A stretch of DNA of 64,000 nt from an uncultured Chloroflexia bacterium (lineage in GTDB: Bacteria; Chloroflexota; Limnocylindria; Limnocylindrales; CSP1-4), in NCBI GenBank assembly GCA_963766735.1, contig CAVYBU010000007.1, forward strand, positions 256,001-320,000, written 5' to 3'. Under the pieces are notes generated by a model, which was not told the origin of the DNA, ran no database searches, and saw only the letters and a list, made by a program, of their open reading frames with translations. The stretch's first letter is position 1; every line of letters starts with the position of its first letter. This document shows, piece by piece, positions 37,172-49,277 of this stretch. The translations under genes and the position numbers were made by a program.

Positions 37172-40100
37172 TCAGGCCAGCTGGAGGTCGATCACACCCT
37201 CGCCGACGCGACGTCGCACCTCGGCGACCAGCTCCGCGTCGTAGGCCACACCCCGCAGCTCCATCGGCAACGCGCTGCCCCCCGGGGCCGGCACGTGCAC
37301 GATCACGCGCGTCGCGCCAGGCCTCTCCCTCAGCACGCCCTTGAACGCCTGCATCGCGGCCAGGACGCGATCCGTCGCGGCACCGCGGGCGAAGCGGATG
37401 TTGAGCACGGCACCGGGAGCCGCCTCAACGGGACGTGACGGGGCATCGTTGGCCGCCGCGGCGCGGGAGCGCTGTTCGTCGGGGAGCGGCGGCGACTCGG
37501 GCTCGTCGGTTCCCTCGAGCCCCGTCGCTCCCGGCGGCTCCGCGTATGTTGGGACGGGCTCGGCCGGACGGAGCGGGCCACCGCCGCGGCCGTTGGCGCC
37601 GCTGCCGTTGCCGTTGTCCCGGGCGCCGTTCCCGTTTCCGCCACCGCGGGCGCCGACGCCGCTCCCCCCTGGAGCTCCCCCACCCCGTCGCGCCGCCCGC
37701 TTGTCCAGCGAGCCGACGTCCTTCGCGAACGCCTCCGGCCCGCGATCCGCGACGGCATCCCAGTCCCAGACCGAGTCGGCCAGCAGCGAGGCCTCGTCGC
37801 CCCGGTGGTCCACGCGTCCGGCCACCAGCAGGATCGCGCCGTCGCGCCAGGTCCCCACCGTCTGCTCGTACGTCTTCGGGAAGACCACCACCTCGAGAGT
37901 CCCCTGCAGGTCCTCGAGCGTGACGACCGCCATCATGCTCTTCGACTTGGTGAGCACCGAGCGGATCCCGGTCACGATCCCGCCCAGGACCACGCGCTGA
38001 CCGTCGAGCGACTCGTCCTTGAGGTCTCCGGAGTACGCCGTCACGAACTGCCCGACGCGTTCCGCCACCTCGCCCATCGGGTGATCCGAGAGGTAGAGCC
38101 CCATGAGCTCCTTCTCCCAGCGGAGACGCTCCCTGACCGGGGTCTCCGGCGTGGACGGCAGCGGCCGCTCCAGCGTGGAGGACTCGTCGCCGGTCATGTC
38201 GAACAGCGACGTCTGGCCGCTGATCCGGTCGCGCTGCGCGGCCTGGCCCGCGGCGAGCGCGTCGTCCAGGCCCATCAGGATCTGGGCCGGGTGCCCGAGA
38301 ACGTTGAGCGCTCCGACCTTGGCGAGTGACTCCAGCACCTTGCGGTTGGTGAGACGCAGGTCAACACGAGTGCAGAAGTCCGTCAGCGAGCGGAACTCAC
38401 CGCCCTCCTCGCGGGCCTTGATGATCGACTCGATCGCGCCCTCACCGACGTTCTTGACCGCCAGCAGCCCGAACCGGATGGCGTCGCCCTCGACCGTGAA
38501 CCCCAGCCCCGACTCGTGGACGTCCGGCGTGCGCACCTCGATGCCCAGGCGCCGGCACTCGGCGATCGCGGCCGCGACCTTCTCCGCGTTGTCCCGGAAC
38601 GCGGAGAGCACGGACGTCATGTACTCGACGGTGTAGTTCGCCTTGAGGTATGCGGTCTGGTACGCGATCAGCCCGTAGCAGGTCGCGTGGGCCTTGTTGA
38701 ACCCGTACCGCTCGAAGGGCTCGAACGCCTTGAACACCGCGTCGATGGTCTTTGCCGGCACGCCGCGCTCCGCGGCCCGCTCGACGAAGGTCTCCCGCAT
38801 CGACTGGAGCACCGCCCGCTTCTTCTTGCGGATGGCGTAGCCCAGCATGTCCGCCTCGGGCCCCGAGAAGCCGCCCAGGGCGATGGCGGCGGACATGATG
38901 TCCTCCTGGTACACGAAGATCCCGTACGTCCGGTTGAGGAACGGCTCCAGGAGCGGGTGGAGATACGTCACCGGCTCCTGGCCGTGCTTGCGCCGGATGT
39001 AGGCCGGGATGTTGTCCATCGGGCCCGGGCGGTAGAGCGCCACCATGGCCGCAAGGTCGAAGACGGACGTCGGCTGGAGCTCCTTGACGTAGCGGCGCAT
39101 CCCCGCGGACTCAAGCTGGAAGACACCCGTTGTCTCACCCGACGCGAGGAGATCGAAGGTCTTCGAATCGTCGAGCGGGATGTTGTCCAGGTCCACCGCG
39201 ATGTCGCGGTCCTCCTTGATCAGGTCCACGGCCTTGCGCAGGATCGTGAGGTTGGACAGGCCCAGGAAGTCGAACTTGAGCAGGCCCAGCGCCTCGATGC
39301 CGTGCATCTCGTACTGGGTCATCAGCGCGTCCGAGTTGGTCGCCTTCTGGAGCGGCATCAGCTCCGTCAGCGGCTCCCGCGAGATCACGACCCCGGCGGC
39401 GTGCGTGGACGCGTTCCGGGCCACACCCTCCAGTTGCTTCGCGAGCCCGATCAGCTTCCCGATCTGCGGATCCCCGTCGTGCATCTCCTTGAGCTGCGGG
39501 GAGAGCTGCAGTGCCTCCTCCAGCTTGATGCCCAGCTGGTTCGGGACCGCCTTGGCGATCCGGTCCACGTCCCCGTAGGACATCCCCAGCACGCGCCCGA
39601 CGTCCCGGATCGCGGCGCGGGCGAGCATCGTGCCGAAGGTGATGATCTGCGCGACGTGGTCCTGGCCGTACTTGCGGCTGACGTAGTTGATGACCTCGTC
39701 CCGGCGCTCGTCCTCGAAGTCCACGTCGATGTCCGGCATCGTCACGCGGTCCGGGTTGAGGAACCGCTCGAAGGGGAGGTCGTAGTGGAGCGGGTCCACC
39801 GGCGTGATGCCCAGCGTGTAGGTGACGATGGACCCGGGCGCCGACCCCCTGCAGGTGGTGGCGATCCCTTCCTGGCGTGCGAACCGCACGAAGTCCGCCA
39901 CGATCAGGAAGTAGCCGGCGTAGCCCATGGAGATGATCACGCCCAGCTCGTAGTCCAGGCGCTGCTGGAGGGCCGGGGTGATCACCCCGTAACGGCGGAC
40001 GAGGCCCGCCTCGCACTCCTTGCGCAGCCAGGTCTCCACCGTCTCGCCGTCGGGCACCGGGAAGTGCGGGATCCGGAGGTCGCCCAGCGGCAGCTTCAGG

Positions 40101-40930
40101 TCGACCATCTCGGCGATGCGCCGGGAGTTGAGCAGGGCATCCCGCTGGTCCGGGAACAGCCGCTGCATCTCGGCGGCCGTCTTGAGGTAGAACTCCTGGC
40201 CCTCGAACCGCATCCGGTTCTGGGTGTCGATGTTGTTCCCGGTACCGACGCAGAGCAGGACGTCATGTGCCTCGTGCTGCTCCGGGTGGACGTAGTGCAG
40301 GTCATTGGTGACGACCAGCGGCAGGCCGGTCTCCGGCGCCAGGCGGAGCAGCTGCTCGTTCAGGCGACGCTGCTCCGGGATGCCGTGGTCCTGGAGCTCC
40401 AGGAAGAAGCGGTCCTTGCCCAGGATGTCGCCGTACTCGCCCGCCAGCTTGCGGGCGAGCTCCCAGTCCTCGGCCTCGAGCGCCTTGGGGATCTCGCCGC
40501 CCAGGCAGGCGCTGAGGCCCACCAGACCCTGGCTGTGCTTCGCGAGGTGCTCGCGGTCGATGCGGGGCTTGTAGTAGTAGCCGTCGATGTGGGCGTCCGT
40601 GACCAGGCGGCACAGGTTCTGGTAGCCGGTCATGTCGGTCGCCAGCAGGACCAGGTGGAAGGGCTGGCTGTCGGCCTTGCCCTCCTTGTCGGTCATCGAC
40701 CGCCGCGCGACGTAGGTCTCCACCCCGATGATCGGCCTGATGCCCGCCTTGGTCGCCGCCTGGTAGAAAGCGACCGAGCCGTAGAGGGCTCCGTGGTCAG
40801 TGACGGCGAGCGAATCGAACCCGTGGCGGCCGGCTGTATCGACGAGGTCGGTGATCCGGCCGAGCCCGTCGAGCAGGCTGAACTCCGAGTGGGTGTGGAG
40901 GTGGACGAAGTCGTTCGGGGCGATGGTCAC
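37172..40930 (-). CDS. dnaE: DNA polymerase III alpha subunit
   Basis: FVHLHTHSEFSLLDG PHP domain, RGSAPGS, FERFLNPDRVTMPDIDVDF, YGFNKAHA, OB fold. Confidence 0.97.
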   Translation of the reverse strand: MTIAPNDFVHLHTHSEFSLLDGLGRITDLVDTAGRHGFDSLAVTDHGALYGSVAFYQAATKAGIRPIIGVETYVARRSMTDKEGKADSQPFHLVLLATDMTGYQNLCRLVTDAHIDGYYYKPRIDREHLAKHSQGLVGLSACLGGEIPKALEAEDWELARKLAGEYGDILGKDRFFLELQDHGIPEQRRLNEQLLRLAPETGLPLVVTNDLHYVHPEQHEAHDVLLCVGTGNNIDTQNRMRFEGQEFYLKTAAEMQRLFPDQRDALLNSRRIAEMVDLKLPLGDLRIPHFPVPDGETVETWLRKECEAGLVRRYGVITPALQQRLDYELGVIISMGYAGYFLIVADFVRFARQEGIATTCRGSAPGSIVTYTLGITPVDPLHYDLPFERFLNPDRVTMPDIDVDFEDERRDEVINYVSRKYGQDHVAQIITFGTMLARAAIRDVGRVLGMSYGDVDRIAKAVPNQLGIKLEEALQLSPQLKEMHDGDPQIGKLIGLAKQLEGVARNASTHAAGVVISREPLTELMPLQKATNSDALMTQYEMHGIEALGLLKFDFLGLSNLTILRKAVDLIKEDRDIAVDLDNIPLDDSKTFDLLASGETTGVFQLESAGMRRYVKELQPTSVFDLAAMVALYRPGPMDNIPAYIRRKHGQEPVTYLHPLLEPFLNRTYGIFVYQEDIMSAAIALGGFSGPEADMLGYAIRKKKRAVLQSMRETFVERAAERGVPAKTIDAVFKAFEPFERYGFNKAHATCYGLIAYQTAYLKANYTVEYMTSVLSAFRDNAEKVAAAIAECRRLGIEVRTPDVHESGLGFTVEGDAIRFGLLAVKNVGEGAIESIIKAREEGGEFRSLTDFCTRVDLRLTNRKVLESLAKVGALNVLGHPAQILMGLDDALAAGQAAQRDRISGQTSLFDMTGDESSTLERPLPSTPETPVRERLRWEKELMGLYLSDHPMGEVAERVGQFVTAYSGDLKDESLDGQRVVLGGIVTGIRSVLTKSKSMMAVVTLEDLQGTLEVVVFPKTYEQTVGTWRDGAILLVAGRVDHRGDEASLLADSVWDWDAVADRGPEAFAKDVGSLDKRAARRGGGAPGGSGVGARGGGNGNGARDNGNGSGANGRGGGPLRPAEPVPTYAEPPGATGLEGTDEPESPPLPDEQRSRAAAANDAPSRPVEAAPGAVLNIRFARGAATDRVLAAMQAFKGVLRERPGATRVIVHVPAPGGSALPMELRGVAYDAELVAEVRRRVGEGVIDLQLA

Positions 40931-41030
40931 GGGACGTCCATGGTAGCCCGGCGGCGGGCACCGGGCCTGGTGCCCGGCGCGGCGCCGGCCTGATGCCATG
41001 GACCGGAGCAGCCTGCGCCACAATGTCACG

Positions 41031-41945
41031 ATGCGCCCGACACTGCGGTTCCAGGTCCTCTGTCTTCCCAACGTCCCCTGGAGAGTGCTGAAGGAGCGGT
41101 TCGTCCGGCTCGAGCAGCTCGGCATCGAGGTGGCGGCGCTGCCGGACCATTTCGTCGACTGGACGAATCCGCCGAGCCCCTGGTTCGAGTCCTGGACGGC
41201 GCTCACAGGCCTGGCTGCCGCCACGACAAGCATCCGGCTGTCCAGCTGTGTGACGCAGATCCCGTTCCGGAACCCGGCGATGTTCGCCCGCCAGGCGATG
41301 ACGCTCGACCACATCTCGCAGGGCAGGCTCGAGATCGGCCTTGGGACCGGCCTCGCGGGCGACCCGTCCTACGCCATGATCGGCGTCCCGGACTGGGAGC
41401 CCAAGGAACGCGTCGGGCGGCTCGTGGAATACGTCGAGATCGTGGATCGACTGCTGCGCGATGAGGTCACGTCGTTCGGCGGCGACTTCTACAGGGTGAA
41501 CGGGGCGATCATGAGCCCGCGACCCGTCCAGTCGCCGCGGCCCCCGATCTCGGTTGCGGCCTTGGGGCCCGTGATGATGCGGCATGCCGCGCGGCTTGCG
41601 GACACCTGGAACAGCCTGTCGTTCCTCGAATCGTTCGACGCCCAGTTGGAAGAGACGCAGCGTCGCTCCGAGTCGATGAACGAGTACTGCGATGCGCTCG
41701 GGCGCGAGCCCGCGACGCTTCGGCGTTCCTACACGATGTACGACGCCAAGGCCCGCCCACGGGGGGGCTGGTACGAGTACTACGACTCGGTGGATCGCTT
41801 CGAGGAGATGGCGGGTCGGATCATCGACCTCGGGATGGACGAGATCGTGCTCTACTACCCGCCGGACGAGCGGCAGCTGCCGATATTCGAGCGGATCGCC
41901 GCGGACGTGCTGCCCCGACTCCGGGGGCGCCGGGCTGGCGCCTGA
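41031..41945 (+). CDS. LLM-class flavin-dependent oxidoreductase
   Basis: PDHF, ESWTALTGLAAATTSIRL, FRNPAMFARQAMTLDHISQGRLEIGLGTG, PRPVQSPRPPI. Confidence 0.88.
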   Translation: MRPTLRFQVLCLPNVPWRVLKERFVRLEQLGIEVAALPDHFVDWTNPPSPWFESWTALTGLAAATTSIRLSSCVTQIPFRNPAMFARQAMTLDHISQGRLEIGLGTGLAGDPSYAMIGVPDWEPKERVGRLVEYVEIVDRLLRDEVTSFGGDFYRVNGAIMSPRPVQSPRPPISVAALGPVMMRHAARLADTWNSLSFLESFDAQLEETQRRSESMNEYCDALGREPATLRRSYTMYDAKARPRGGWYEYYDSVDRFEEMAGRIIDLGMDEIVLYYPPDERQLPIFERIAADVLPRLRGRRAGA

Positions 41946-41992: not shown

Positions 41993-42330
41993 TTGGACAT
42001 CGACCGGCTGGACGAGCTCGCTTCGAAGTCGACCGGTTGGCAGAAGGCGAACCGATTGCGGGTCGCCGCCCTGGCCCGCGCCGCCGCCGGAAACCTGGAA
42101 GCGGCGGAGACGCAGGCTCGAGCGGCAGTGGATGGGATCGCGAGCACGGATCTGGTCTTGTTCCATGCGGATGCCCAGCTGACCCCGGGCGACGTGCTGC
42201 GCTCTGCCGGTCGTCCTGCCGAGGAGGGTGAGGCCTTCCGGGAGGCACTCGATCCCTAACGGCAGAAGGGCAGCCTCGTGGGGGTCCAGACGGTGGAGGC
42301 CCGGCTGGCCGGCTGGCCGGACTCACGGCA
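41993..42330 (+). pseudogene. Remnant resembling the TPR-like C-terminus of large adenylate cyclase/AAA-ATPase proteins
   Basis: RVAALARAAAGNLEAAETQARAAV...STDLVLFHADAQL..GDVLRSAGRPAE..EAFREALDP*RQKGSLVG...EARLA. The similarity (recalled, not searched) appears to continue past the TAA at 42257; there is no credible start or RBS. Confidence 0.5.
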
Positions 42331-42473
42331 GGGCCTGTCGTCGAGGTGACAGTTGGATGGTCACAATGTGTCTTTACCCCGGACGCGACAAGGCCCATTC
42401 TGTGCAGCACAAGCGGCGAAGCGCTTGATCCCGAACCAGAAGGGTCGGGACGGCCAGACCAGAGGAGCGTCCC

Positions 42474-43190
42474 ATGACGACCGAGATGATCCCTGAGGGC
42501 GGCGAGTCCATCGCCCGCCACGCCGACGAGAACGACGTCGAGGGCCACAGGCTGGCCAAGACCGGCGCGATCCCGGACGAGAACGACGTCGAGGGCCACA
42601 GGCTGGCCAAGACCGGCGCGATCCCGGACGAGAACGACGTCGAGGGCCACAGGCTGGCCAAGACCGGCGCGATCCCGGACGAGGACGACGTCGAGGGCCA
42701 CAGGCTGGCCAAGACCGGCGCGATCCCGGACGAGGACGACGTCGAGGGCCACAGGCTGGCCAAGAGCGGCGCGACCCCGGACGAGGACGACGTCGAGGGC
42801 CACAGGCTGGCCAAGACCGGCGCGACCCCGGACGAGGACGACGTCGAGGGCCACAGGCTGGCCAAGAGCGGCGCGACCCCGGACGAGGACGACGTCGAGG
42901 GCCACAGGCTGGCCAAGAGCGGCGCGACCCCGGACGAGGACGACGTCGAGGGCCACAGGCTGGCCAAGACCGGCGCGACCCCGGACGAGGACGACGTCGA
43001 GGGCCACAGGCTGGCCAAGAGCGGCGCGACCCCGGACGAGGACGACGTCGAGGGCCACAGCATCGGCTACGGGAGCCCGAGGTTGGCCGGCGATGTCTAC
43101 AAGGTGCGCGAGCGGGAGATCCAGCGAGGAATGGCCCGCGGCTCGATCCTCCGCGACGCCAAGATGGTGATCAAGCGCAGGAAGCCCTGA
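42474..43190 (+). CDS. DVEGH tandem-repeat protein (candidate multi-core peptide precursor)
   Basis: GAGGAG RBS; 17-aa leader + 10 x DE(N/D)DVEGHRLAK(T/S)GA(I/T)P + DEDDVEGH + 43-aa basic tail. Confidence 0.85.
   Translation: MTTEMIPEGGESIARHADENDVEGHRLAKTGAIPDENDVEGHRLAKTGAIPDENDVEGHRLAKTGAIPDEDDVEGHRLAKTGAIPDEDDVEGHRLAKSGATPDEDDVEGHRLAKTGATPDEDDVEGHRLAKSGATPDEDDVEGHRLAKSGATPDEDDVEGHRLAKTGATPDEDDVEGHRLAKSGATPDEDDVEGHSIGYGSPRLAGDVYKVREREIQRGMARGSILRDAKMVIKRRKP
42525..43058 (+). repeat. 51-bp in-frame tandem repeat, about 10.5 copies
   Basis: GACGAG(A/G)ACGACGTCGAGGGCCACAGGCTGGCCAAGA(C/G)CGGCGCGA(T/C)CCCG with three variable positions. Confidence 0.97.
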
Positions 43191-43211
43191 CGTTCGTCCA
43201 TGGGTTCCTCC

Positions 43212-43247
43212 GAACACGGGCGGAGTCGCAAGACCCCGCCCGTGTTC
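43212..43247 (+). terminator. Strong stem-loop after the repeat gene (terminator or mRNA stabiliser)
   Basis: GAACACGGGCGG-A-GTC-GCAA-GAC-C-CCGCCCGTGTTC with a GNRA tetraloop; no long U-tract. Confidence 0.65.
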
Positions 43248-43374
43248 TGCGTCTGCCGCCTGGACGGCAACGGCCCGGGTGCATCGCCGGCCCATACAAG
43301 CGTTGCGCAGCGGTCTGCGCGCCGCTAGCATTCGGCGCGGTATCCGGCGCCACGGACTGAGGAAGGGACCGAAC

Positions 43375-44079
43375 GTGACAGCGACCGCGCGGACCACCGC
43401 CGTCGATGCGCTGCGGCGCTGCGCCCTCTTCTCACGGGTAGACGATCAAACGCTGGCCGTCTGCATCAACTCGCTCCGGACACGCCAGTATCGGCGCAAC
43501 GAGACGATCTTCCACCAGGGAGACGCGGGAGACTCCCTTTACATCATCGAGGTGGGTACCGTGAAGATCGTGCTGCCCTCGCCGGAAGGTGAAGGCGAAG
43601 CCATCATCGCGACGTTGGGCCCGGGTGACTTCTTCGGCGAGCTGGCGTTGCTCGACGGCGCCGAACGCTCGGCCACTGCGATCGCCCATCAGGCGACGAC
43701 AGCCCTCGTCCTCCGGCGGGACGCATTCGGCCAGCTGATCGACACCGTTCCCGCGCTGCGCCACGACCTCCTGGCAGGGTTGGCCGCTGAGCTGCGCCGG
43801 CTGACCCACCACGTTGGGGAGCTCTACTTCCTCGACCTGCCCGGCAGGCTGGCGCTCCTGATCGTGCGCCTCGCCCGCGACGTGGATCCCAAGCCGACCG
43901 GACCCGTGACGCTCAACTGGAGCTTCTCCCAGTCGGAGCTCGCGGGGATGATTGGCGGGACGCGACAGACAGTGAACCGGCTCCTCGGCGAATTCACGGC
44001 CGAGGGCATGATCAAGATCGAGAACGACACGCTCATCGTGCCCGACGTGGACCGCCTCGAGCGGGCGGCCGCACGCTGA
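43375..44079 (+). CDS. Crp/Fnr family transcriptional regulator (cNMP-binding)
   Basis: IFHQGDAGDSLYII..GTVKI, GDFFGELALLDGAERSATAIA phosphate-binding cassette, SQSELAGMIGGTRQTVNRLL HTH. Confidence 0.93.
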   Translation: MTATARTTAVDALRRCALFSRVDDQTLAVCINSLRTRQYRRNETIFHQGDAGDSLYIIEVGTVKIVLPSPEGEGEAIIATLGPGDFFGELALLDGAERSATAIAHQATTALVLRRDAFGQLIDTVPALRHDLLAGLAAELRRLTHHVGELYFLDLPGRLALLIVRLARDVDPKPTGPVTLNWSFSQSELAGMIGGTRQTVNRLLGEFTAEGMIKIENDTLIVPDVDRLERAAAR

Positions 44080-44098
44080 GCGGCCGCGGCCAGATCCG

Positions 44099-44926
44099 AT
44101 GACCGAGCCAGAAGCCGGCCCGCGGCGTCGCTCACCGGCGTTCGATCGGGATGCGCGTGCGGCCCTCGAGGCGATCGGCCGCCGCGCCGAGATCGCGCGC
44201 CGGCTCGAGCTGGGGAGCGCCGATGCCGTCCTTCGATCCGTGGTGGAGGCGGCGGTAGCGATGTTCGAAGCGGAGGCGGCATCCATCGCGCTCTACGAGC
44301 CGGCCCGCAACCTGCTCGTCTTCCGGGTCGCGGCGGGGGTGCAGGGCCAGGGCGTCGTTGGACTCGAGATCACGCCTGACCAGGGTCTCGTGGGGTACGT
44401 CTTCTCGAGCGGGCAGGCGCTCGCGATCGCGGACGTTCGAGCGGATCCCCGCTTCGGCCGGAGCTTCGCCGAACGGACGGAGTACGTACCGCGCAGCATC
44501 GTGGCGGTGCCGCTGCTGGACGAGCGCGGCACGCTCGGCGTGCTCGAGGTGCTCGACAAGCGGAGCGAGGCGAGCTTCTCCCTCCGGGATGTCGAGCTGG
44601 CGGGCGTCTTCGCGCGGCAGGCGACGGTCGCCATCCGGTCCAGCCGCGTCGAACGCGAGACGGCGATGCTGCTGCGATCCGTGATCGGTGCGCTCGCCGG
44701 CGGCGAGGCACCCACGGACGGCGTTGAGGCGCTCGTTGCCGCCGCGCTCGCCGACATTGATGACCCGGACGACCCGCTGTGGCCGCTCGTCGAGCAGGTC
44801 GCAGCGCTCCGCGGGTCCGGTCCAGAGCAGCGAGAGCTGCTCGGCGCCTTGCTCAACGTCCTCGTTCGCCAGACCGAACGTGGCCACGGGCGACGCGGTG
44901 GACGCCTTCGCGCGCCCGGCAGATGA
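44099..44926 (+). CDS. Stand-alone GAF-domain protein
   Basis: AEAASIALY...LVFRVAAG...GLVGYVFSSGQALAIADVRADPRF...RSIVAVPL...LGVLEVLDK...FSLRDVEL. Confidence 0.9.
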   Translation: MTEPEAGPRRRSPAFDRDARAALEAIGRRAEIARRLELGSADAVLRSVVEAAVAMFEAEAASIALYEPARNLLVFRVAAGVQGQGVVGLEITPDQGLVGYVFSSGQALAIADVRADPRFGRSFAERTEYVPRSIVAVPLLDERGTLGVLEVLDKRSEASFSLRDVELAGVFARQATVAIRSSRVERETAMLLRSVIGALAGGEAPTDGVEALVAAALADIDDPDDPLWPLVEQVAALRGSGPEQRELLGALLNVLVRQTERGHGRRGGRLRAPGR

Positions 44927-45750
44927 GCGATCAGCTCCTCCCCGCCTGGAGCGAACCGTTCGTCGGCGCTGGGCGGGACACGTTGCGCCGGCTCCCGCCC
45001 CTTGGGATCCTGGACCGCAACTGGGCGATCGGCGGCAGCGACGGGAGCGGTGTCACGGTCGCGATCATCGACTCCGGCGTAGAGCGGGATCATCCCGCCG
45101 TCGGTGGGAAGCTGGTCCGTAGCGTCAGGGTGGAGCTGGCCGCAGACCCGGACGACGACCCGGTCGTGCTTGAGGACGAGGAAGCACTGGACGTGGTGGG
45201 CCACGGGACTGCGTGCGCCGGGATCATCCACGCCATTGCGCCCGGCGCCGACCTCGTGTCGGTCCGTGTCCTTGGGCCGGACAACCGCGGCAAGGGGATC
45301 GTCTTTGCGGCCGGCGTCGACTGGGCAATTGACCAGGGTGTCGGGGTGATGAACCTGTCGCTCTCCTCCAAGAGCGAGGCGCTCTTCGGTACCTTCCACG
45401 ACCTGGCGGATCGGGCCTACTTTGCGAATGCGCTCCTGGTCTGCGCGGCCAACAACGTCCCCGGCAACAGCTACCCGTCGCTCTTCGCCTCGGTCGTCTC
45501 TGTCGCCGCCCACGACCTCCCCGAACCCGCAGCGTGGTTCTACAACCCGCGCCCGCCGGTGGAGTTCGGGGCGTTCGGCCTGGACGTGGACGTCGCGTGG
45601 CGCGACGGGAGCCGGATCACGGCAACCGGCAACAGCTTCGCGGCACCCCACATCGCGGGGTACGCGACCCTCATCCGGGCGAAGCACCCGGACGTGACCC
45701 CGTTCGAGGTGAAGGCCATCCTCGCCGCGATCGCCACGGAGACCCGGTAG
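44923..45750 (+). CDS. S8 (subtilisin-like) serine peptidase without signal peptide
   Basis: Catalytic triad motifs VAIIDSG, GHGTACAGII, GNSFAAPHIAG; ATGA overlap with the GAF gene stop. Confidence 0.93.
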   Translation: MSDQLLPAWSEPFVGAGRDTLRRLPPLGILDRNWAIGGSDGSGVTVAIIDSGVERDHPAVGGKLVRSVRVELAADPDDDPVVLEDEEALDVVGHGTACAGIIHAIAPGADLVSVRVLGPDNRGKGIVFAAGVDWAIDQGVGVMNLSLSSKSEALFGTFHDLADRAYFANALLVCAANNVPGNSYPSLFASVVSVAAHDLPEPAAWFYNPRPPVEFGAFGLDVDVAWRDGSRITATGNSFAAPHIAGYATLIRAKHPDVTPFEVKAILAAIATETR

Positions 45751-45824
45751 GCGTCGCCCCTCACGGACCCCACGGCCGGTCGCCCGCCGGGGATGCTGCG
45801 GGCAACCGCCATCGGCGGGAGCGC

Positions 45825-46583
45825 CTACTGCGCCGTCCAGCCCCCGTCGACCGGCAGGATCGTGCCCGTCACCAGGCCCGACGCACGGGACGACAGAAAG
45901 ACCACCGCGGCCGCGACGTCGGCTGTCGTGCCGACCCGGCCGACGGGGATCCGGTCGAGGACCTCGGCCAGGAAGACCGGGTCGTCGAGCCGCTCGGCCG
46001 TGCCGGGCGTGTAGATGAAGGTGGGCGCGATCGCGTTGACCGTCACGCCGTGCGGCGCCCACTCGAGGGCGAGGACCTTGGTCAGGAGGTTCACGCCACC
46101 CTTGCTCGCGGAGTAGACCGCGTGGCGCCGGATGCCGACGAGCCCGGCCTGCGAGCTGAGGTTGACGACGCGTCCGTAGCCCCTCTCCACCATGTGGCGG
46201 CCGACGGCCTGACTGGTGAAGAACAGGCCCTTGAGGTTGACGTTCATCATCCCGTCCCAGTCGGCCTCGGTCACGTCGATCGCGTCGTGGTTCGCCCCCA
46301 GGCCCGCGTTGTTGACCAGGATGTCGATCCGGCCGTGCGTCGCGACCGCGGCGTCGACCGCCGCGCGAGTACCCCCGACATCGGTGACGTCGAGCCGGAT
46401 CGGCTCCACGCGACCCCCGTCCGGCGCGGCCCAGACGACATCGGTCGCGTCCGTGTCACGAATGCCGGCGAGGACGTGCGCGCCGCAGGCCGCCAGGGCC
46501 CGCGCGAGGTCACGGCCGATCCCCCGCCCCGCGCCGGTCACCAGGGCAACCTGCCCGGTCAGATCAAAGTCCGGTCGCTGCAT
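45825..46583 (-). CDS. SDR-family oxidoreductase
   Basis: VTGAGRGIG, NNAG, YSASK, VNAIAP, VDGG. Confidence 0.92.
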   Translation of the reverse strand: MQRPDFDLTGQVALVTGAGRGIGRDLARALAACGAHVLAGIRDTDATDVVWAAPDGGRVEPIRLDVTDVGGTRAAVDAAVATHGRIDILVNNAGLGANHDAIDVTEADWDGMMNVNLKGLFFTSQAVGRHMVERGYGRVVNLSSQAGLVGIRRHAVYSASKGGVNLLTKVLALEWAPHGVTVNAIAPTFIYTPGTAERLDDPVFLAEVLDRIPVGRVGTTADVAAAVVFLSSRASGLVTGTILPVDGGWTAQ

Positions 46584-46650: not shown

Positions 46651-47478
46651 TCAGCCAACGCCGCGCGCGTCCAGCACCCGGCCCCAGTGGAACAGCCGAA
46701 CCGCGACCAGGACCCCGAATGCCGCCATCACCAGCATCGCCGCCGCGGCAATCGACGCGTCCAGGGCGCCGCCCTGGAACTCACCGTAGACAACCAGGGG
46801 GAGCGTCTGGGTCCGGCCCATCACGTTGCCGGCAAACATGATCGTGGCGCCGAACTCCCCCAGCGCCCGGGCCCAGCACATCGTCAGCCCCCCGGCCAGG
46901 GCGGCGCCGGCCAGCGGCGTTGTGATCGTGCGGAACAGCTGGCGCTCCGACGCACCGTCAACCCTGGCCGCATCCTCCAGGTCCCGATCCACGCCCGCGA
47001 GCCCTGTCCGGGCGGACCGGATGAAGAACGGCGCCGACACGAATGTCTGGGCGAGGACCACGGCGACCATCGTGAACGACACGGAGATGCCGAGCTCGTG
47101 GAGCGGGGCCCCAAGCAGCCCCAGCCGTCCGAAGACCAGCAGCAGCGCCAGGCCGGCGACCGATGGCGGCAGCACGATCGGCAGGTCCACGATCGCCTCC
47201 ACGAGCCCTTTGCCCCGGAACCGCCATCGGGCCAGCACGAAGGCGAGCGGCAATCCCATGACCACGGTGATGGTCAGGCTGATCGCGGTCGTCACGAGGC
47301 TCAGGACGAGCGCGTCCAGGACCACCGGCGACCCGAGAGCGTGGACGAGCGATCCGTCGAGGATCGCCCGTGCCACGAGGGTGACGACGGGCAGACCCAG
47401 GAACAGCGCGAACAGAGCCGCGAGAGCCGCGAGCGTGCGCGTGCCCCAGCCTCCCCGGACCTGCGTCATGTGGGTCAT
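46651..47478 (-). CDS. modB: Molybdate ABC transporter permease
   Basis: DLPIVLPPSVAGLALL, EDAARVDGAS, WARALGEFGATIMFAGN..GRTQTLPL. Confidence 0.9.
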   Translation of the reverse strand: MTHMTQVRGGWGTRTLAALAALFALFLGLPVVTLVARAILDGSLVHALGSPVVLDALVLSLVTTAISLTITVVMGLPLAFVLARWRFRGKGLVEAIVDLPIVLPPSVAGLALLLVFGRLGLLGAPLHELGISVSFTMVAVVLAQTFVSAPFFIRSARTGLAGVDRDLEDAARVDGASERQLFRTITTPLAGAALAGGLTMCWARALGEFGATIMFAGNVMGRTQTLPLVVYGEFQGGALDASIAAAAMLVMAAFGVLVAVRLFHWGRVLDARGVG

Positions 47479-48284
47479 GGGACGCGCAGGAACCCGGATT
47501 CCGCGAGGATCGCCTGGCCCTCCGGCCCGGCGAGCCAGTCAAGGAACGCCGTGGCGGCCGCGGTATGCCGGGATGAGCTGACCACGACACCAGCGTATGT
47601 CGCCCTGACGTTGGCCGACTCGGGCAGGTCGATCGTGGACACCGCCTTCGACGCGCGGGCGTCAGTGACGTACGCGATGCCGGCATCTCCCTCGCCCAGC
47701 TCGATCTTCGCGACGATCGACCTGGCGTTGTCCTCCTTGGACACGATGTTGGCGGCGTAGGCGGACGCGAAGTCCGCGGGGTAGCCCGCCTCCCGCGAGA
47801 GGTTGTCCACGAGCCGGGTCGCGTACGTCGTGATCGGCACCCCATCACCCGCGGCGATGACCTTCACGCCCGCCATGGCGAGGTCCGCCGGCGTCCGGAT
47901 CCCGGCGGGGTTGTCTTCGGGCACGATGACCGTGAGCCCATTGCCGGCGAACGGGATCGGGATCCCGGAGGCGAAGCCGGCGTCGACGAGCTTCTGCGGG
48001 TTCCTGGTGTCCGCGGACAGGAAGACGTCCGCGGGGGCTCCCTGCTCGATCTGGGTCTCGAGCGTGGTCGAGGAGTCCGTCGCGATCGTCAGCGTGGTGC
48101 CCGGCTTCGCCGCCTCGTATGCCGTGCGGACCTGCTCCAGAACGCCCTTCAGCGATGCGGCGCCGTAGATGGTCAGGCTGGCCTCTGTCGGGCCGAGGCT
48201 CCCATCCGGAGCAGCGGCACCCCCGGAGCAGGCTGCGATGACGAGAGCGAGGGCGGCGGCCCCAACTCCGAGACCGGACTTCAC
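47475..48284 (-). CDS. modA: Molybdate ABC transporter substrate-binding lipoprotein
   Basis: Lipobox IAAC, GAASLK, QIEQGAPADVFLSAD, GEGDAGIAYVTD. Confidence 0.9.
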   Translation of the reverse strand: MKSGLGVGAAALALVIAACSGGAAAPDGSLGPTEASLTIYGAASLKGVLEQVRTAYEAAKPGTTLTIATDSSTTLETQIEQGAPADVFLSADTRNPQKLVDAGFASGIPIPFAGNGLTVIVPEDNPAGIRTPADLAMAGVKVIAAGDGVPITTYATRLVDNLSREAGYPADFASAYAANIVSKEDNARSIVAKIELGEGDAGIAYVTDARASKAVSTIDLPESANVRATYAGVVVSSSRHTAAATAFLDWLAGPEGQAILAESGFLRVP

Positions 48285-48718
48285 GCGCGCGGTTCCCTCG
48301 AAGACGGGATCTCGACGATGACGTTGGTCGACTTGACGACACACACTGCCTCATCGCCAACCTTGAGACCCAGCTCCGCGACGGCCTCGGCGGTCATGAG
48401 GCTGACGAGGCGATGCGGACCGGCGATGACCTCCACGACGGCCGCCACGCGGTCGACCTCCACGCGGGTCACGATGCCTGCGAACCTGTTGCGAGCCGAT
48501 TGGGCAACGATCGGGCGGTCGGTGGCCACCCTCCGGCGCTCGTCCAGGAGCCTCGAGATCTCCTCAATTGCGACCAGGCGCTGTCCACCCTCGGAACGCT
48601 CCATCGCGAGCCGGCCTTCGGCCTCCCAGCGGCGCAGCGTCTCGACGGAGACGCCCAGCATCTCCGCCGCCTGGCCGACGCGGACCTGGGTGCCATGGGC
48701 CTCGACAATCTTGCTCAT
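48281..48718 (-). CDS. MerR-type HTH + TOBE molybdate-responsive regulator
   Basis: VGQAAEMLGVSVETLRRWE HTH; SARNRFAGIV...SLMTAEAVAELGL...VVKST TOBE/Mop domain. Confidence 0.88.
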   Translation of the reverse strand: MSKIVEAHGTQVRVGQAAEMLGVSVETLRRWEAEGRLAMERSEGGQRLVAIEEISRLLDERRRVATDRPIVAQSARNRFAGIVTRVEVDRVAAVVEVIAGPHRLVSLMTAEAVAELGLKVGDEAVCVVKSTNVIVEIPSSREPRA

Positions 48719-48877
48719 ACCCATGAAGTATCGCCAATATGGGCGTACATGTCGAAGTATTGGCCCAAGACGTGAGGTTACGTGAACCTCGCGCGGGGTT
48801 GTCCAACTGGTGATTGCGGCGCGAGTGCCCCTCGGCGTGGTCAGCGTGTCGAAGCCGACCCGGCTACGCTGCGGGAC

Positions 48878-49277
48878 ATGGATGGGCCGATCGACGACAC
48901 CGCGTTCGAGGACTGGGTCTTCGAGGCGATCGACGCCCTTCCCGCTGCCTTCCAGGAGCGCCTCGGCAGCGTCGCCATCGTCATCGAGGAGTGGCCCACC
49001 GCAGGCGCAGCTGGCCTCGGTGGGTGCCGGTGGCCTGTACGGCCTGTACCAGGGCGTGCCGCGCTCCCTGCCCGGCGCAGACCATGCGGCGAGCCCGTCC
49101 AAGATCACGATCTTCCGCGGCCAGCTCGAGCGCCACTACCGCACGCCCCAGGCGCTTCGGGCCAAGGTGATCGACACCGTCCACCACGAGATCGCCCATC
49201 ACTTCGGCATCTCCGACGCCAGGCTGCACGAACTCGCGGCCGAGCACGATGACGGGGCCGGCCGACACGCGCGCTAG
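48878..49277 (+). CDS. Zincin-like metallopeptidase family protein (frameshifted near 49000 as sequenced)
   Basis: MDGPIDDTAFEDWVFEAIDALP...VIEEWPT in one frame continues as LYGLYQGVP...KITIFR...TVHHEIAHHFGISD (HEXXH) in another. Confidence 0.75.

Follow-up and report, generated by a model that had tools for sequence, protein, structure and literature searches.

What could join a protein built largely from one short repeated motif to a Crp-family regulator, a stand-alone GAF protein and a subtilisin-like protease? The question is raised by positions 41993 to 45750 of a stretch of 64,000 nucleotides (hereafter the window) from contig CAVYBU010000007.1 of an uncultured Chloroflexia bacterium assigned to the Limnocylindrales, where four genes follow one another on the forward strand. 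An earlier note, made from the letters of this DNA, had described a 238-residue protein with 11 DVEGH motifs, a Crp/Fnr regulator, a GAF protein and a translationally coupled subtilase (peptidase S8) with a full Asp/His/Ser triad and no signal peptide. All of these parts are present as described, and the coupling is seen in the ATG of the S8 gene at 44923, which overlaps the stop codon of the GAF gene (ATGA). Here we draw on comparisons of related loci to argue that the genes very likely form one functional unit and that this cassette is probably a cytoplasmic, cyclic-nucleotide-controlled proteolysis module, in which the protease would act on the motif-bearing protein.

The case for a functional unit is carried by two sets of loci. 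The first comprises 39 public loci encoding relatives of the last unit and tail of the repeat protein, all from metagenome-assembled genomes (MAGs) labelled Chloroflexia, Chloroflexota or Candidatus Limnocylindrales; GAF and S8 genes follow downstream on the same strand in 35 of the 39 and lie divergently upstream in two more (L030 and L034). The second was seeded with the S8 protease and takes in about 7 kb on each side in 78 genomes (two unpublished ones were left out), which gives 79 loci with the window. If a motif gene is defined as one open frame with at least two motifs, or with one motif behind the operator described below, a D(V/T)EGH gene lies within 4.5 kb of S8 at 66 of these 79 loci, and at 59 of the 67 that are not cut by a contig end. 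Three gene orders occur: repeat-Crp-GAF-S8, as in the window (10 loci), Crp-repeat-GAF-S8 (38 loci, mostly of family f4, where the repeat proteins are tail-less), and Crp-GAF-S8 with a convergent motif gene after S8 (24 loci); some S8 loci have two motif genes. Crp orthologues, 44-89% identical, stand on the same strand 5' of GAF at 62 or more of the 78 S8-seeded loci, and the GAF gene lies directly 5' of S8, with a gap of -15 to +41 nt, at 91 of 102 loci. The flanks of the window are not conserved, its DnaE and modA/B genes being found at none of the 39 loci. The linkage is found again in dozens of species whose flanking genes differ, and we regard the cluster as more than chance.

The proposal of a system, for which the earlier note had looked to D(V/T)E(G/A)H frames, Crp and cyclase-TPR genes around homologues of S8 and GAF, therefore stands within the class, and S8 and GAF homologues are indeed linked to DVEGH-type frames. 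Its remark that the locus lacks a tailoring enzyme and an exporter also extends to the related loci: among the conserved neighbours at the 79 loci there is no tailoring or modifying enzyme, macrocyclase domain, transporter, metal transporter, chaperone, integrase or transposase (spurious frames in this high-GC DNA merged into one giant component when neighbours were clustered, and only the next-ranked families were used).

Co-occurrence across whole genomes points the same way. Orthologues of S8 occur in 81 of 201 genomes of the class, by family in 32 of 60 (f1), 48 of 66 (f4), 0 of 7 (f2), 0 of 66 (f3) and 0 of 1 (f5), and the distribution is patchy within genera, which implies several separate gains or losses. 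We counted a degenerate DNA pattern for DD[VTAI]EGH in all 201 genomes and set it against the presence of S8. At least four matches are found in 46 of the 81 S8-positive genomes and in none of the 120 S8-negative ones (44 of 79 and 0 of 119 without the unpublished genomes G067, G087 and G123), at least three in 52 of 81 versus 4 of 120, and the mean count is 4.09 versus 0.53; the reversed pattern, used as a control, gives 0 or 1 match per genome. Genera that include both states divide cleanly: in g2, the S8-positive genomes have 2-10 matches and both S8-negative genomes have none, and 18 of the 19 other genomes that match the tail profile are S8-positive.

These data also bear on an alternative, namely that the genes merely travel together, through shared descent or on a mobile island, without any common function. 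The patchy distribution would suit such an explanation, as would the restriction of all the genomes to one phylum and of most to one class, and one weak contig joint that skips the whole cassette. We nevertheless consider it very improbable: the flanks are wholly different between loci, the internal order changes with membership kept, GAF-S8 adjacency persists at 45-57% identity in other classes, the same operator stands before every type of motif gene, and the common neighbours include no integrase or transposase.

The odd member of the cassette is the repeat protein, which consists of a short N-terminal part, 11 units of 17 residues that each end in (D/N)DVEGH, and a basic tail of 42 residues (SIGYGSP...REREIQR...KRRKP). 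In the window the units vary solely at N/D, T/S and I/T codons, and the 238 residues include 59 Asp and Glu and 12 His. We take the frame to be coding because its GC content by codon position (0.71/0.45/0.98) resembles that of the adjacent genes, because GAGGAG stands 6 nt before its ATG, and because relatives keep the motif despite synonymous third-position changes. All 11 motifs share one frame and form the sole such array in the 3.62-Mb genome; six-frame matches to D[VT]EGH number 17, and the 6 outside the array are scattered singles. A word-indexed search returned 30 relatives of 130-254 residues, all named at most "hypothetical protein", which have in common (T/E/D)(E/D)DD(V/T)EGH, present 2-9 times, and, at the C-terminus, a tail of some 42 residues (alignment A1). 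Over 222 distinct instances, conservation of the motif is 1.00 for D, 0.97 for V/T, 0.95 for E, 1.00 for G and 1.00 for H; the three positions before it are mostly Asp or Glu, and the residues after it are variable and basic. The spacers are hydrophilic and basic, near-identical inside one protein, and vary across species in both length and sequence. That only the motif is invariant, between spacers that vary, speaks for a recognition site rather than a fold.

The family extends well beyond multi-repeat forms. When a profile built from the last unit and tail is run against 1.84 billion proteins, it returns 191 cluster representatives at E <=0.001, 59 of them at <=1e-10, and the commonest form in this library is a single-motif protein of 60-80 residues with a hydrophilic leader, the motif and the tail. 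Frames of the S8-seeded set hold from 1 to 13 motifs, and the 11-repeat protein of the window is an expanded form of the family. It has no fitting family in Pfam, NCBIfam or PADLOC, where the one sub-threshold match was driven by acidic residues, and in the ESM Atlas its tail best reaches 0.75, to a hypothetical protein. Judged by titles and abstracts, our literature searches brought up no relevant work on the motif or on an operon combining GAF, subtilisin-like and Crp genes, nor, for the Limnocylindria, any on this cluster. At seven loci from long-read MAGs (L001, L002, L006, L007, L009, L022 and L039) the repeat array changes reading frame one or more times; we considered programmed frameshifting inside the arrays and set it aside, assembly indels in a near-perfect repeat being more likely. 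Elsewhere in the genome of the window (G000:C3:329379-329516, minus strand) lies a degenerate relative of the tail family that reads DTEGS instead of DTEGH, followed by a similar basic tail; a class III cyclase-AAA gene (C3:329980-331491) is some hundreds of bases away.

A second family of motif proteins has a different architecture. Its members are 145-265 residues long and have two or three D(V/T)(E/Q)GH motifs, each just before a predicted strand, the last being followed by AISLRFP...FRRxLLA and one membrane helix; no Pfam family matches them. In family f4 their genes are convergent with S8 (after S8 at L089, L100, L115, L120, L132, L140 and L146), and a further member occurs at L026. The same palindrome that precedes the repeat genes precedes these genes as well, so what is common to the module is the motif and not the repeat architecture.

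How the motif genes might be controlled is suggested by the regulator and by the DNA in front of them. The gene for the regulator most likely starts at GTG 43375, which is not the first start of the listed open reading frame. Its product matches the Pfam models cNMP_binding (9e-26, 90 bits) and HTH_Crp_2 (56 bits), both of which are found in 63 of 63 orthologues, with FGELAL...RSATA in the domain that binds cyclic nucleoside monophosphates (cNMPs) and GGTRQTVNR in the helix-turn-helix; it scores below every NCBIfam equivalog cut-off (96.9 vs 266 bits for the CRP model). Residues G88-E89-L90 and S99 are invariant in the orthologues and T101 is nearly so, and these presumably sit where E. coli CRP contacts cyclic AMP (cAMP); the regulator is probably loaded with a cyclic nucleotide.

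Twenty-four aligned upstream regions share four blocks at fixed spacing, namely TGTCG-N6-CGACA, GGTCRCA, CTTTACC and CATCCT or CATGAT. The last two are separated by 17-18 nt at all 24 loci and are followed by a 5' leader of about 65-100 nt and GGAGG. In the window, this arrangement puts the centre of the palindrome about 60-65 nt 5' of the presumed transcript start, as at Crp sites that activate. Of the 70 multi-motif frames in the S8-seeded set, 50 have the palindrome (<=1 mismatch) between 60 and 400 nt ahead of their first motif (median distance 184 nt); the single-motif frames (13 of 83) were admitted only through the presence of the operator and cannot count towards it. Over all fetched DNA its density is 0.108 per kb, an upper bound on the background as true sites are included. 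In front of the tail-less repeat genes of family f4 it follows directly after the Crp stop codon, and it also precedes convergent motif genes. From its 5-N6-5 form and constant neighbourhood we infer that Crp binds this palindrome, and we think it likely that Crp controls the motif genes through it. In the genome of the window, TGTC-N8-GACA occurs at 9 sites, fewer than TGTC and GACA give at other spacings (33-37 sites at spacings 6, 7, 9 and 10, 15 at spacing 5 and 11 at spacing 11).

The GAF protein and the protease form the second half of the cassette. The former has a GAF domain at about residues 40-180 (70.6 bits against a Pfam cut-off of 22.4) and a C-terminal part that is conserved and helical. 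Among solved structures, its profile is closest (1.9e-20 to 2e-15) to the GAF domains of phosphodiesterases 2, 5 and 10, of the cyclase CyaB2 and of an HD-GYP protein, the last of which (4mcw) is the top match and is not known as a proven cNMP binder. A ligand of the cAMP or cyclic GMP type is thus a lead only. The S8 protein matches Pfam Peptidase_S8 at 9e-29 (101.1 bits against a cut-off of 21.8) and has subtilisin BPN' as its best solved relative (4.8e-31); D50, H94 and S238, together with the oxyanion residue N178, are invariant in 39 orthologues and align with the catalytic positions of BPN'. Its N-terminal LPAWSEPF is conserved, with W9 and F13 invariant. The family also has a conserved R/K-G-K-G, aligned at what we take to be S101-G102-Q103-Y104 in BPN' numbering, and the basic side chains and opened S4 pocket that this would place beside P3-P5 would suit an acidic site ending in V/T-E-G-H. 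A complex prediction for GAF, S8 and the last repeat with its tail scored 0.14 (mark 0.32), which weighs neither way on binding. In the ESM Atlas, S8 falls in Chloroflexota clusters named "serine protease".

Longer relatives place the protease among signalling proteins. Among 120 such relatives listed, 68 also have a protein kinase domain, 20 a GAF domain, 2 a class III cyclase with AAA and TPR domains and 1 a cNMP-binding domain; since these are mostly fusions to signalling domains, the S8 clade looks like a signalling-linked cytoplasmic protease. The 20 cases of GAF and S8 in one gene call compare with just 1 in-frame fusion at 102 examined loci, and many may be artefacts of the stop/start overlap or of frameshifts. 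The closest of the listed longer relatives are Ser/Thr kinase fusions of 590-700 residues, several of them named Acidimicrobiales, Iamia or Actinomycetota, and make up an uncharacterised kinase-protease family.

Beyond the class, other Chloroflexota classes were sampled with about 355 genomes, of which 26 have full-length S8 orthologues at 45-57% identity; in one such family 10 of 12 genomes do. Here the claim of a system divides. The GAF-S8 pair holds up, with GAF adjoining S8 at 25 of the 27 loci examined (from 25 genomes), in the flipped order at 8 loci of another class (one family has S8 then GAF). The association with motif genes does not carry over in general, as they are near S8 at 8 of the 27 (one of them reads DETEGH seven times). 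S8-GAF must therefore have other or unrecognised targets in these lineages, and the pattern suggests that GAF-S8 is the old core, to which the motif genes and the operator became attached in some lineages only. As far as searched, the module is confined to Chloroflexota.

How might these parts work together? We propose that Crp, probably loaded with a cyclic nucleotide, would bind TGTCG-N6-CGACA about 60-65 bp upstream of the presumed transcript start, as the conserved site suggests, and so switch on genes for (D/E)DD(V/T)EGH proteins, which in the window means the 11-repeat protein. GAF and S8, whose overlapping genes argue that they are made together, would act as one regulated enzyme with GAF as the ligand sensor; their linkage to motif genes suggests the motif as the recognition site of this enzyme, which would cleave the repeat protein unit by unit. 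The products in the window would be about ten 17-residue peptides and the 42-residue basic tail. In the most likely register, V/T-E-G-H would occupy the P4-P1 pockets and the cut would fall after His. As no exporter or modifying enzyme is conserved, the pieces would most likely act inside the cell. We lean, if only slightly, towards a direct action of S8 on the motif, whether by cutting or by binding, and infer from gene association and from the appearance of the motif that the action would be cutting; to the whole chain from Crp through the motif gene to S8 cleavage, exactly as written, we give a little less than even weight.

Several observations pull against this proposal. As to the enzyme, His at P1 is not a usual subtilisin preference, and Asp, Glu and His are the residues that a metal site would use; in the membrane-anchored family, moreover, the motifs stand just before predicted strands of a possibly folded domain (a low-confidence model). 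As to the operator, the palindrome by itself is insignificant in the window, where 2 matches were found and 4.25 are expected, and a genome-wide search shows no wider regulon, with 1 perfect site (in C24) and 9 TGTC-N8-GACA sites; this rarity fits a local regulator. As to linkage, two of the 39 tail-type loci (L021 and L026) are without GAF-S8 in the DNA examined, 8 of the 67 untruncated S8 loci are without a motif gene (3 have single or variant motifs and 5 nothing), and the sampled genomes are related, so that the counts overstate independence. The sparse motif genes around the S8 of other classes belong here too, together with a palindrome that is not conserved there, and a motif frame lies beside none of 9 metagenome loci with kinase-S8 genes, only about 4 of which had useful flanks.

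Some of these points favour the main rival to cleavage, in which the motif proteins are themselves the end products: disordered, acidic, His-bearing proteins, metal-binding or stress-protective, that are induced by Crp, with GAF-S8 acting elsewhere, for example on Crp or a cyclase. The composition of the motif and of the window protein would suit such a role, the membrane-anchored family has two or three motifs in one small domain, like one-site ligands, 19 of the 27 loci of other classes have S8-GAF without nearby motif genes, and the operator ties the motif genes to Crp and not to S8. We still judge this unlikely. Motif arrays occur only in S8-positive genomes, and motif genes stay beside GAF-S8 through three gene orders, which is hard to explain if S8 is uninvolved; no metal transporter or chaperone is a conserved neighbour, and the model of the membrane-anchored protein is of low confidence (mean pLDDT, the predicted local distance difference test, 41.9). 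A further alternative keeps the contact between S8 and the motif and reverses its sense: the repeat proteins would be decoys with many sites, each motif sitting in the S8 active site uncut or only slowly cut, and would hold S8 in check until a cNMP signal through GAF, or falling expression, frees the protease. The same co-occurrence evidence that speaks for cleavage speaks for decoys, and both the high and variable number of motifs per frame and the near-identity of units within one gene would suit a dosage role. A single-motif protein of 60-80 residues, the commonest form, would be a poor sponge, though, a separate GAF partner is already able to control the enzyme, and no direct evidence favours the idea, which we hold to be quite improbable.

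The "broken TPR-like fragment" noticed earlier just upstream of the cassette is the C-terminal remnant of a gene encoding a zinc ribbon, a class III adenylate/guanylate cyclase, AAA_16 and TPR domains, the rest of which is lost in the window. At the two closest loci (L001 and L002), open frames of 782 and 1096 codons finish immediately 5' of the repeat gene, and the remnant shares 59-60% identity with their final ~85 residues; full-length relatives match Guanylate_cyc, AAA_16, TPR_12 and a zinc ribbon in Pfam, and the genome has no other copy of the remnant. A cyclase-AAA-TPR gene lies within 7 kb of S8 at 22 of the 79 loci, and the genome of the window has about seven such genes, so the enrichment near S8 is modest. 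The regulatory loop that the earlier note had sketched, running from peptide to TPR/cyclase to cNMP to Crp, is therefore unsupported in that form: the cyclase gene is a neighbour at a minority of loci and is reduced to a remnant here, and the direction that the data give is from Crp to the repeat gene through the palindrome.

The features of the window locus are collected in Table 1. The Crp and GAF genes are separated by 19 nt. Hydrophobic stretches of the signal-peptide or membrane type are absent from all four proteins (the highest 19-residue Kyte-Doolittle mean is 1.40), which by this measure look cytoplasmic.

Table 1. Features of the cassette and its surroundings, in window coordinates.
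Feature	Position	Strand	Basis
C-terminal remnant of a cyclase gene, 88 codons	41993..42259	+	59-60% identity to the ends of relatives' long frames
Palindrome TGTCGTCGAGGTGACA, putative operator of the neighbouring Crp-family regulator	42336..42351	.	Block kept in 24 upstream regions; consensus TGTCG-N6-CGACA
Promoter-like pair: TTTACC (42373-42378), 17-nt spacer, CATTCT (42396-42401)	42373..42401	+	Conserved, with fixed spacing, at 24 loci
DVEGH repeat protein, 238 aa	42474..43190	+	Open reading frame and homologues
Tandem DNA repeat within the repeat gene, 51 bp x 10.5 copies, 98% identical	42525..43060	+	Tandem-repeat analysis
Predicted stem-loop with 12-bp outer stem, directly 3' of the repeat gene	43212..43247	+	RNA fold
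Crp/Fnr-family regulator, 234 aa	43375..44079	+	Pfam and orthologues
Stand-alone GAF protein, 275 aa	44099..44926	+	Pfam GAF (2.4e-19) and alignment
Subtilase (peptidase S8), 275 aa, without signal peptide	44923..45750	+	Pfam and invariant catalytic residues

Between the repeat gene and Crp, the segment 43188-43262 folds at -35.4 kcal/mol (z -3.49), and 0 of 200 shuffles are equally stable. The 80 nt that lie 3' of 83 D(V/T)EGH frames have a mean of -37.3 kcal/mol as against -31.4 for random windows of the same loci (the relatives being non-independent), and 31% of such windows at the 79 loci fall below the 5th percentile of the background. The hairpin, which no U run follows, may be a terminator or attenuator; in peptide clusters, precursor genes can be followed by leaky terminators, of which these stem-loops are reminiscent. 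A consensus scan of 42200-45900 found no promoter and no terminator; its consensus was that of the E. coli hexamers, which the promoter-like pair matches poorly.

Two kinds of library touch the locus. Contigs from metatranscriptome libraries (X19 and X20) cover parts of the repeat, tail, Crp, GAF and S8; DNA carry-over is possible, and they are no evidence of transcription. A single DNA contig from a metagenome run (X1) leads from 42307 to 45739 by way of 9 other letters, skipping 3431 bp and thereby the whole cassette from just 5' of the operator to 11 nt before the S8 stop codon; the joint is weak (depth 2, 20 letters on the shorter side) and, if real, would mark a cassette-free variant in the population. 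On the left flank, 37172-41314 (minus strand) is a frame for a DnaE-like DNA polymerase III alpha subunit, 1380 codons from its first listed start, with a long Arg/Ser-rich N-terminal stretch that is probably untranslated and a Gly/Asn-rich insert near the C-terminus. On the right flank, 46651-49108 (minus strand) holds ABC-transporter-like genes, with a multi-hydrophobic permease and a lipoprotein-like binding protein, and a gene with a helix-turn-helix-like N-terminal and a molybdate-binding-type C-terminal part, all as read from their translations. These right-hand genes are unrelated to the cassette and are absent from all 39 related loci.

If the proposal is right, it ties cyclic-nucleotide signalling directly to site-specific proteolysis in bacteria and offers a way to make families of intracellular peptides out of repeat precursors, in a lineage plentiful in soils, sediments and fresh water and almost without cultured representatives; a subtilase strict for an acidic site of seven residues would also make a useful tool enzyme. 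Even if cleavage is wrong, there remain a new protein family, with 191 cluster representatives for its tail-bearing form and no Pfam or NCBIfam model, and a new Crp-type operator with a gene set whose members come and go together. The four cassette genes are small, soluble and easily expressed. In its boldest form, which we put forward tentatively and regard as doubtful, the idea is that of a bacterial counterpart of the prohormone convertases: a cNMP-gated S8, strict for (D/E)DD(V/T)EGH, that cuts Crp-induced precursors into freely evolving intracellular peptides. A cut before E-G-H would further put His third at the new N-terminus, the amino-terminal copper- and nickel-binding (ATCUN) arrangement, and would thereby yield metal-binding peptides on demand.

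Lastly, how does the cassette compare with systems already described? The S8 protein scores below every NCBIfam cut-off. Among the candidates that we examined and rejected are the mycosins of type VII secretion (110 vs 278.75 bits for TIGR03921, with no hydrophobic segment in S8), QhpE, the maturation protease of quinohemoprotein amine dehydrogenase (91.2 vs 165 bits for NF049966), and the anti-phage defence systems of PADLOC, which give only generic matches (the cNMP-binding part of a Pycsar effector and a "subtilase" model) and none for the repeat and GAF proteins. The earlier note knew of no named system with this composition, which agrees with what we found.

Individual parts have clearer counterparts. 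The palindrome resembles the class I sites of CRP-cAMP and other Crp-Fnr sites of 5-N6-5 form in its layout (16 bp in all, with two arms of 5 bp around a spacer of 6 bp), in being centred about 60-65 bp 5' of the presumed start and in lying beside a gene for a Crp-family protein; it differs in its half-site, which is TGTGA in sites of the E. coli type and TGTCG here, and in a regulon that seems limited to motif genes. In the recognition helix the cassette Crp has Gln where, we assume, E. coli CRP has Glu181. The cNMP-binding GAF domains of phosphodiesterases 2, 5 and 10 and of Anabaena CyaB2 carry an NKFDE motif, a similar version of which is partly kept in the cassette GAF (LDKR...F..RD.E), although the latter stands alone and has its own helical C-terminal part. 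The intracellular subtilisin proteases (ISPs) of Bacillus are likewise small subtilases that lack a signal peptide, and a short conserved stretch at the N-terminus may be a further likeness. The S8 matches include solved ISPs (7xr8 at 1.2e-26 and 7y6m at 7.8e-26), but BPN' and not an ISP is the best; they align only from query position 20-24 onward, their inhibitory extension has what we take to be a LIPY motif where the cassette S8 reads LPAWSEPF, and they have neither a GAF or Crp partner nor a dedicated repeat substrate. In Myxococcus, a subtilase is also encoded with a possible controlling partner: PopC, which is secreted and cuts CsgA, is held by the co-transcribed PopD, which is not a GAF protein.

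As complete systems, the cyanobactins and the Kex2-processed precursors come closest. In the cyanobactins, PatE is a ribosomal repeat protein with a short conserved site per unit, cut by PatA and PatG, and a subtilase is encoded beside it, as here. The cyanobactin site consists of a small or aliphatic residue, Glu and a small residue, and V-E-G-H resembles the PatA site, which we take to be G(L/V)E(A/P)S. The repeat protein could on these grounds be read as the multi-core precursor of an exported natural product or bacteriocin. We find this hard to credit: S8 scores 16.6 bits with the PatA model (TIGR03895) against a cut-off of 421, no known precursor family is matched, and no heterocyclase, macrocyclase domain, DUF domain or transporter lies nearby. 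Neither the repeat protein nor S8 has an export signal, the spacers are long, basic and hydrophilic, and the protease, a cytoplasmic enzyme of 275 residues with no further domain, has GAF and Crp as its partners. The nearest analogy to the proposed working mode is instead found in the precursors of yeast alpha-factor and of ustiloxin, in which tandem peptides are released at fixed sites by a subtilisin-family protease, Kex2, much as prohormone convertases do. Those are proteases of the eukaryotic secretory pathway that cleave after a pair of basic residues, whereas the cassette would use an acidic site in the bacterial cytoplasm under the control of nucleotide sensors, and homology is limited to the S8 fold. 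Cyanobactins and Kex2-processed precursors thus appear to share with the module only the principle, and we rate the module as a new kind of system, put together from known domains, one new protein family and one new operator.

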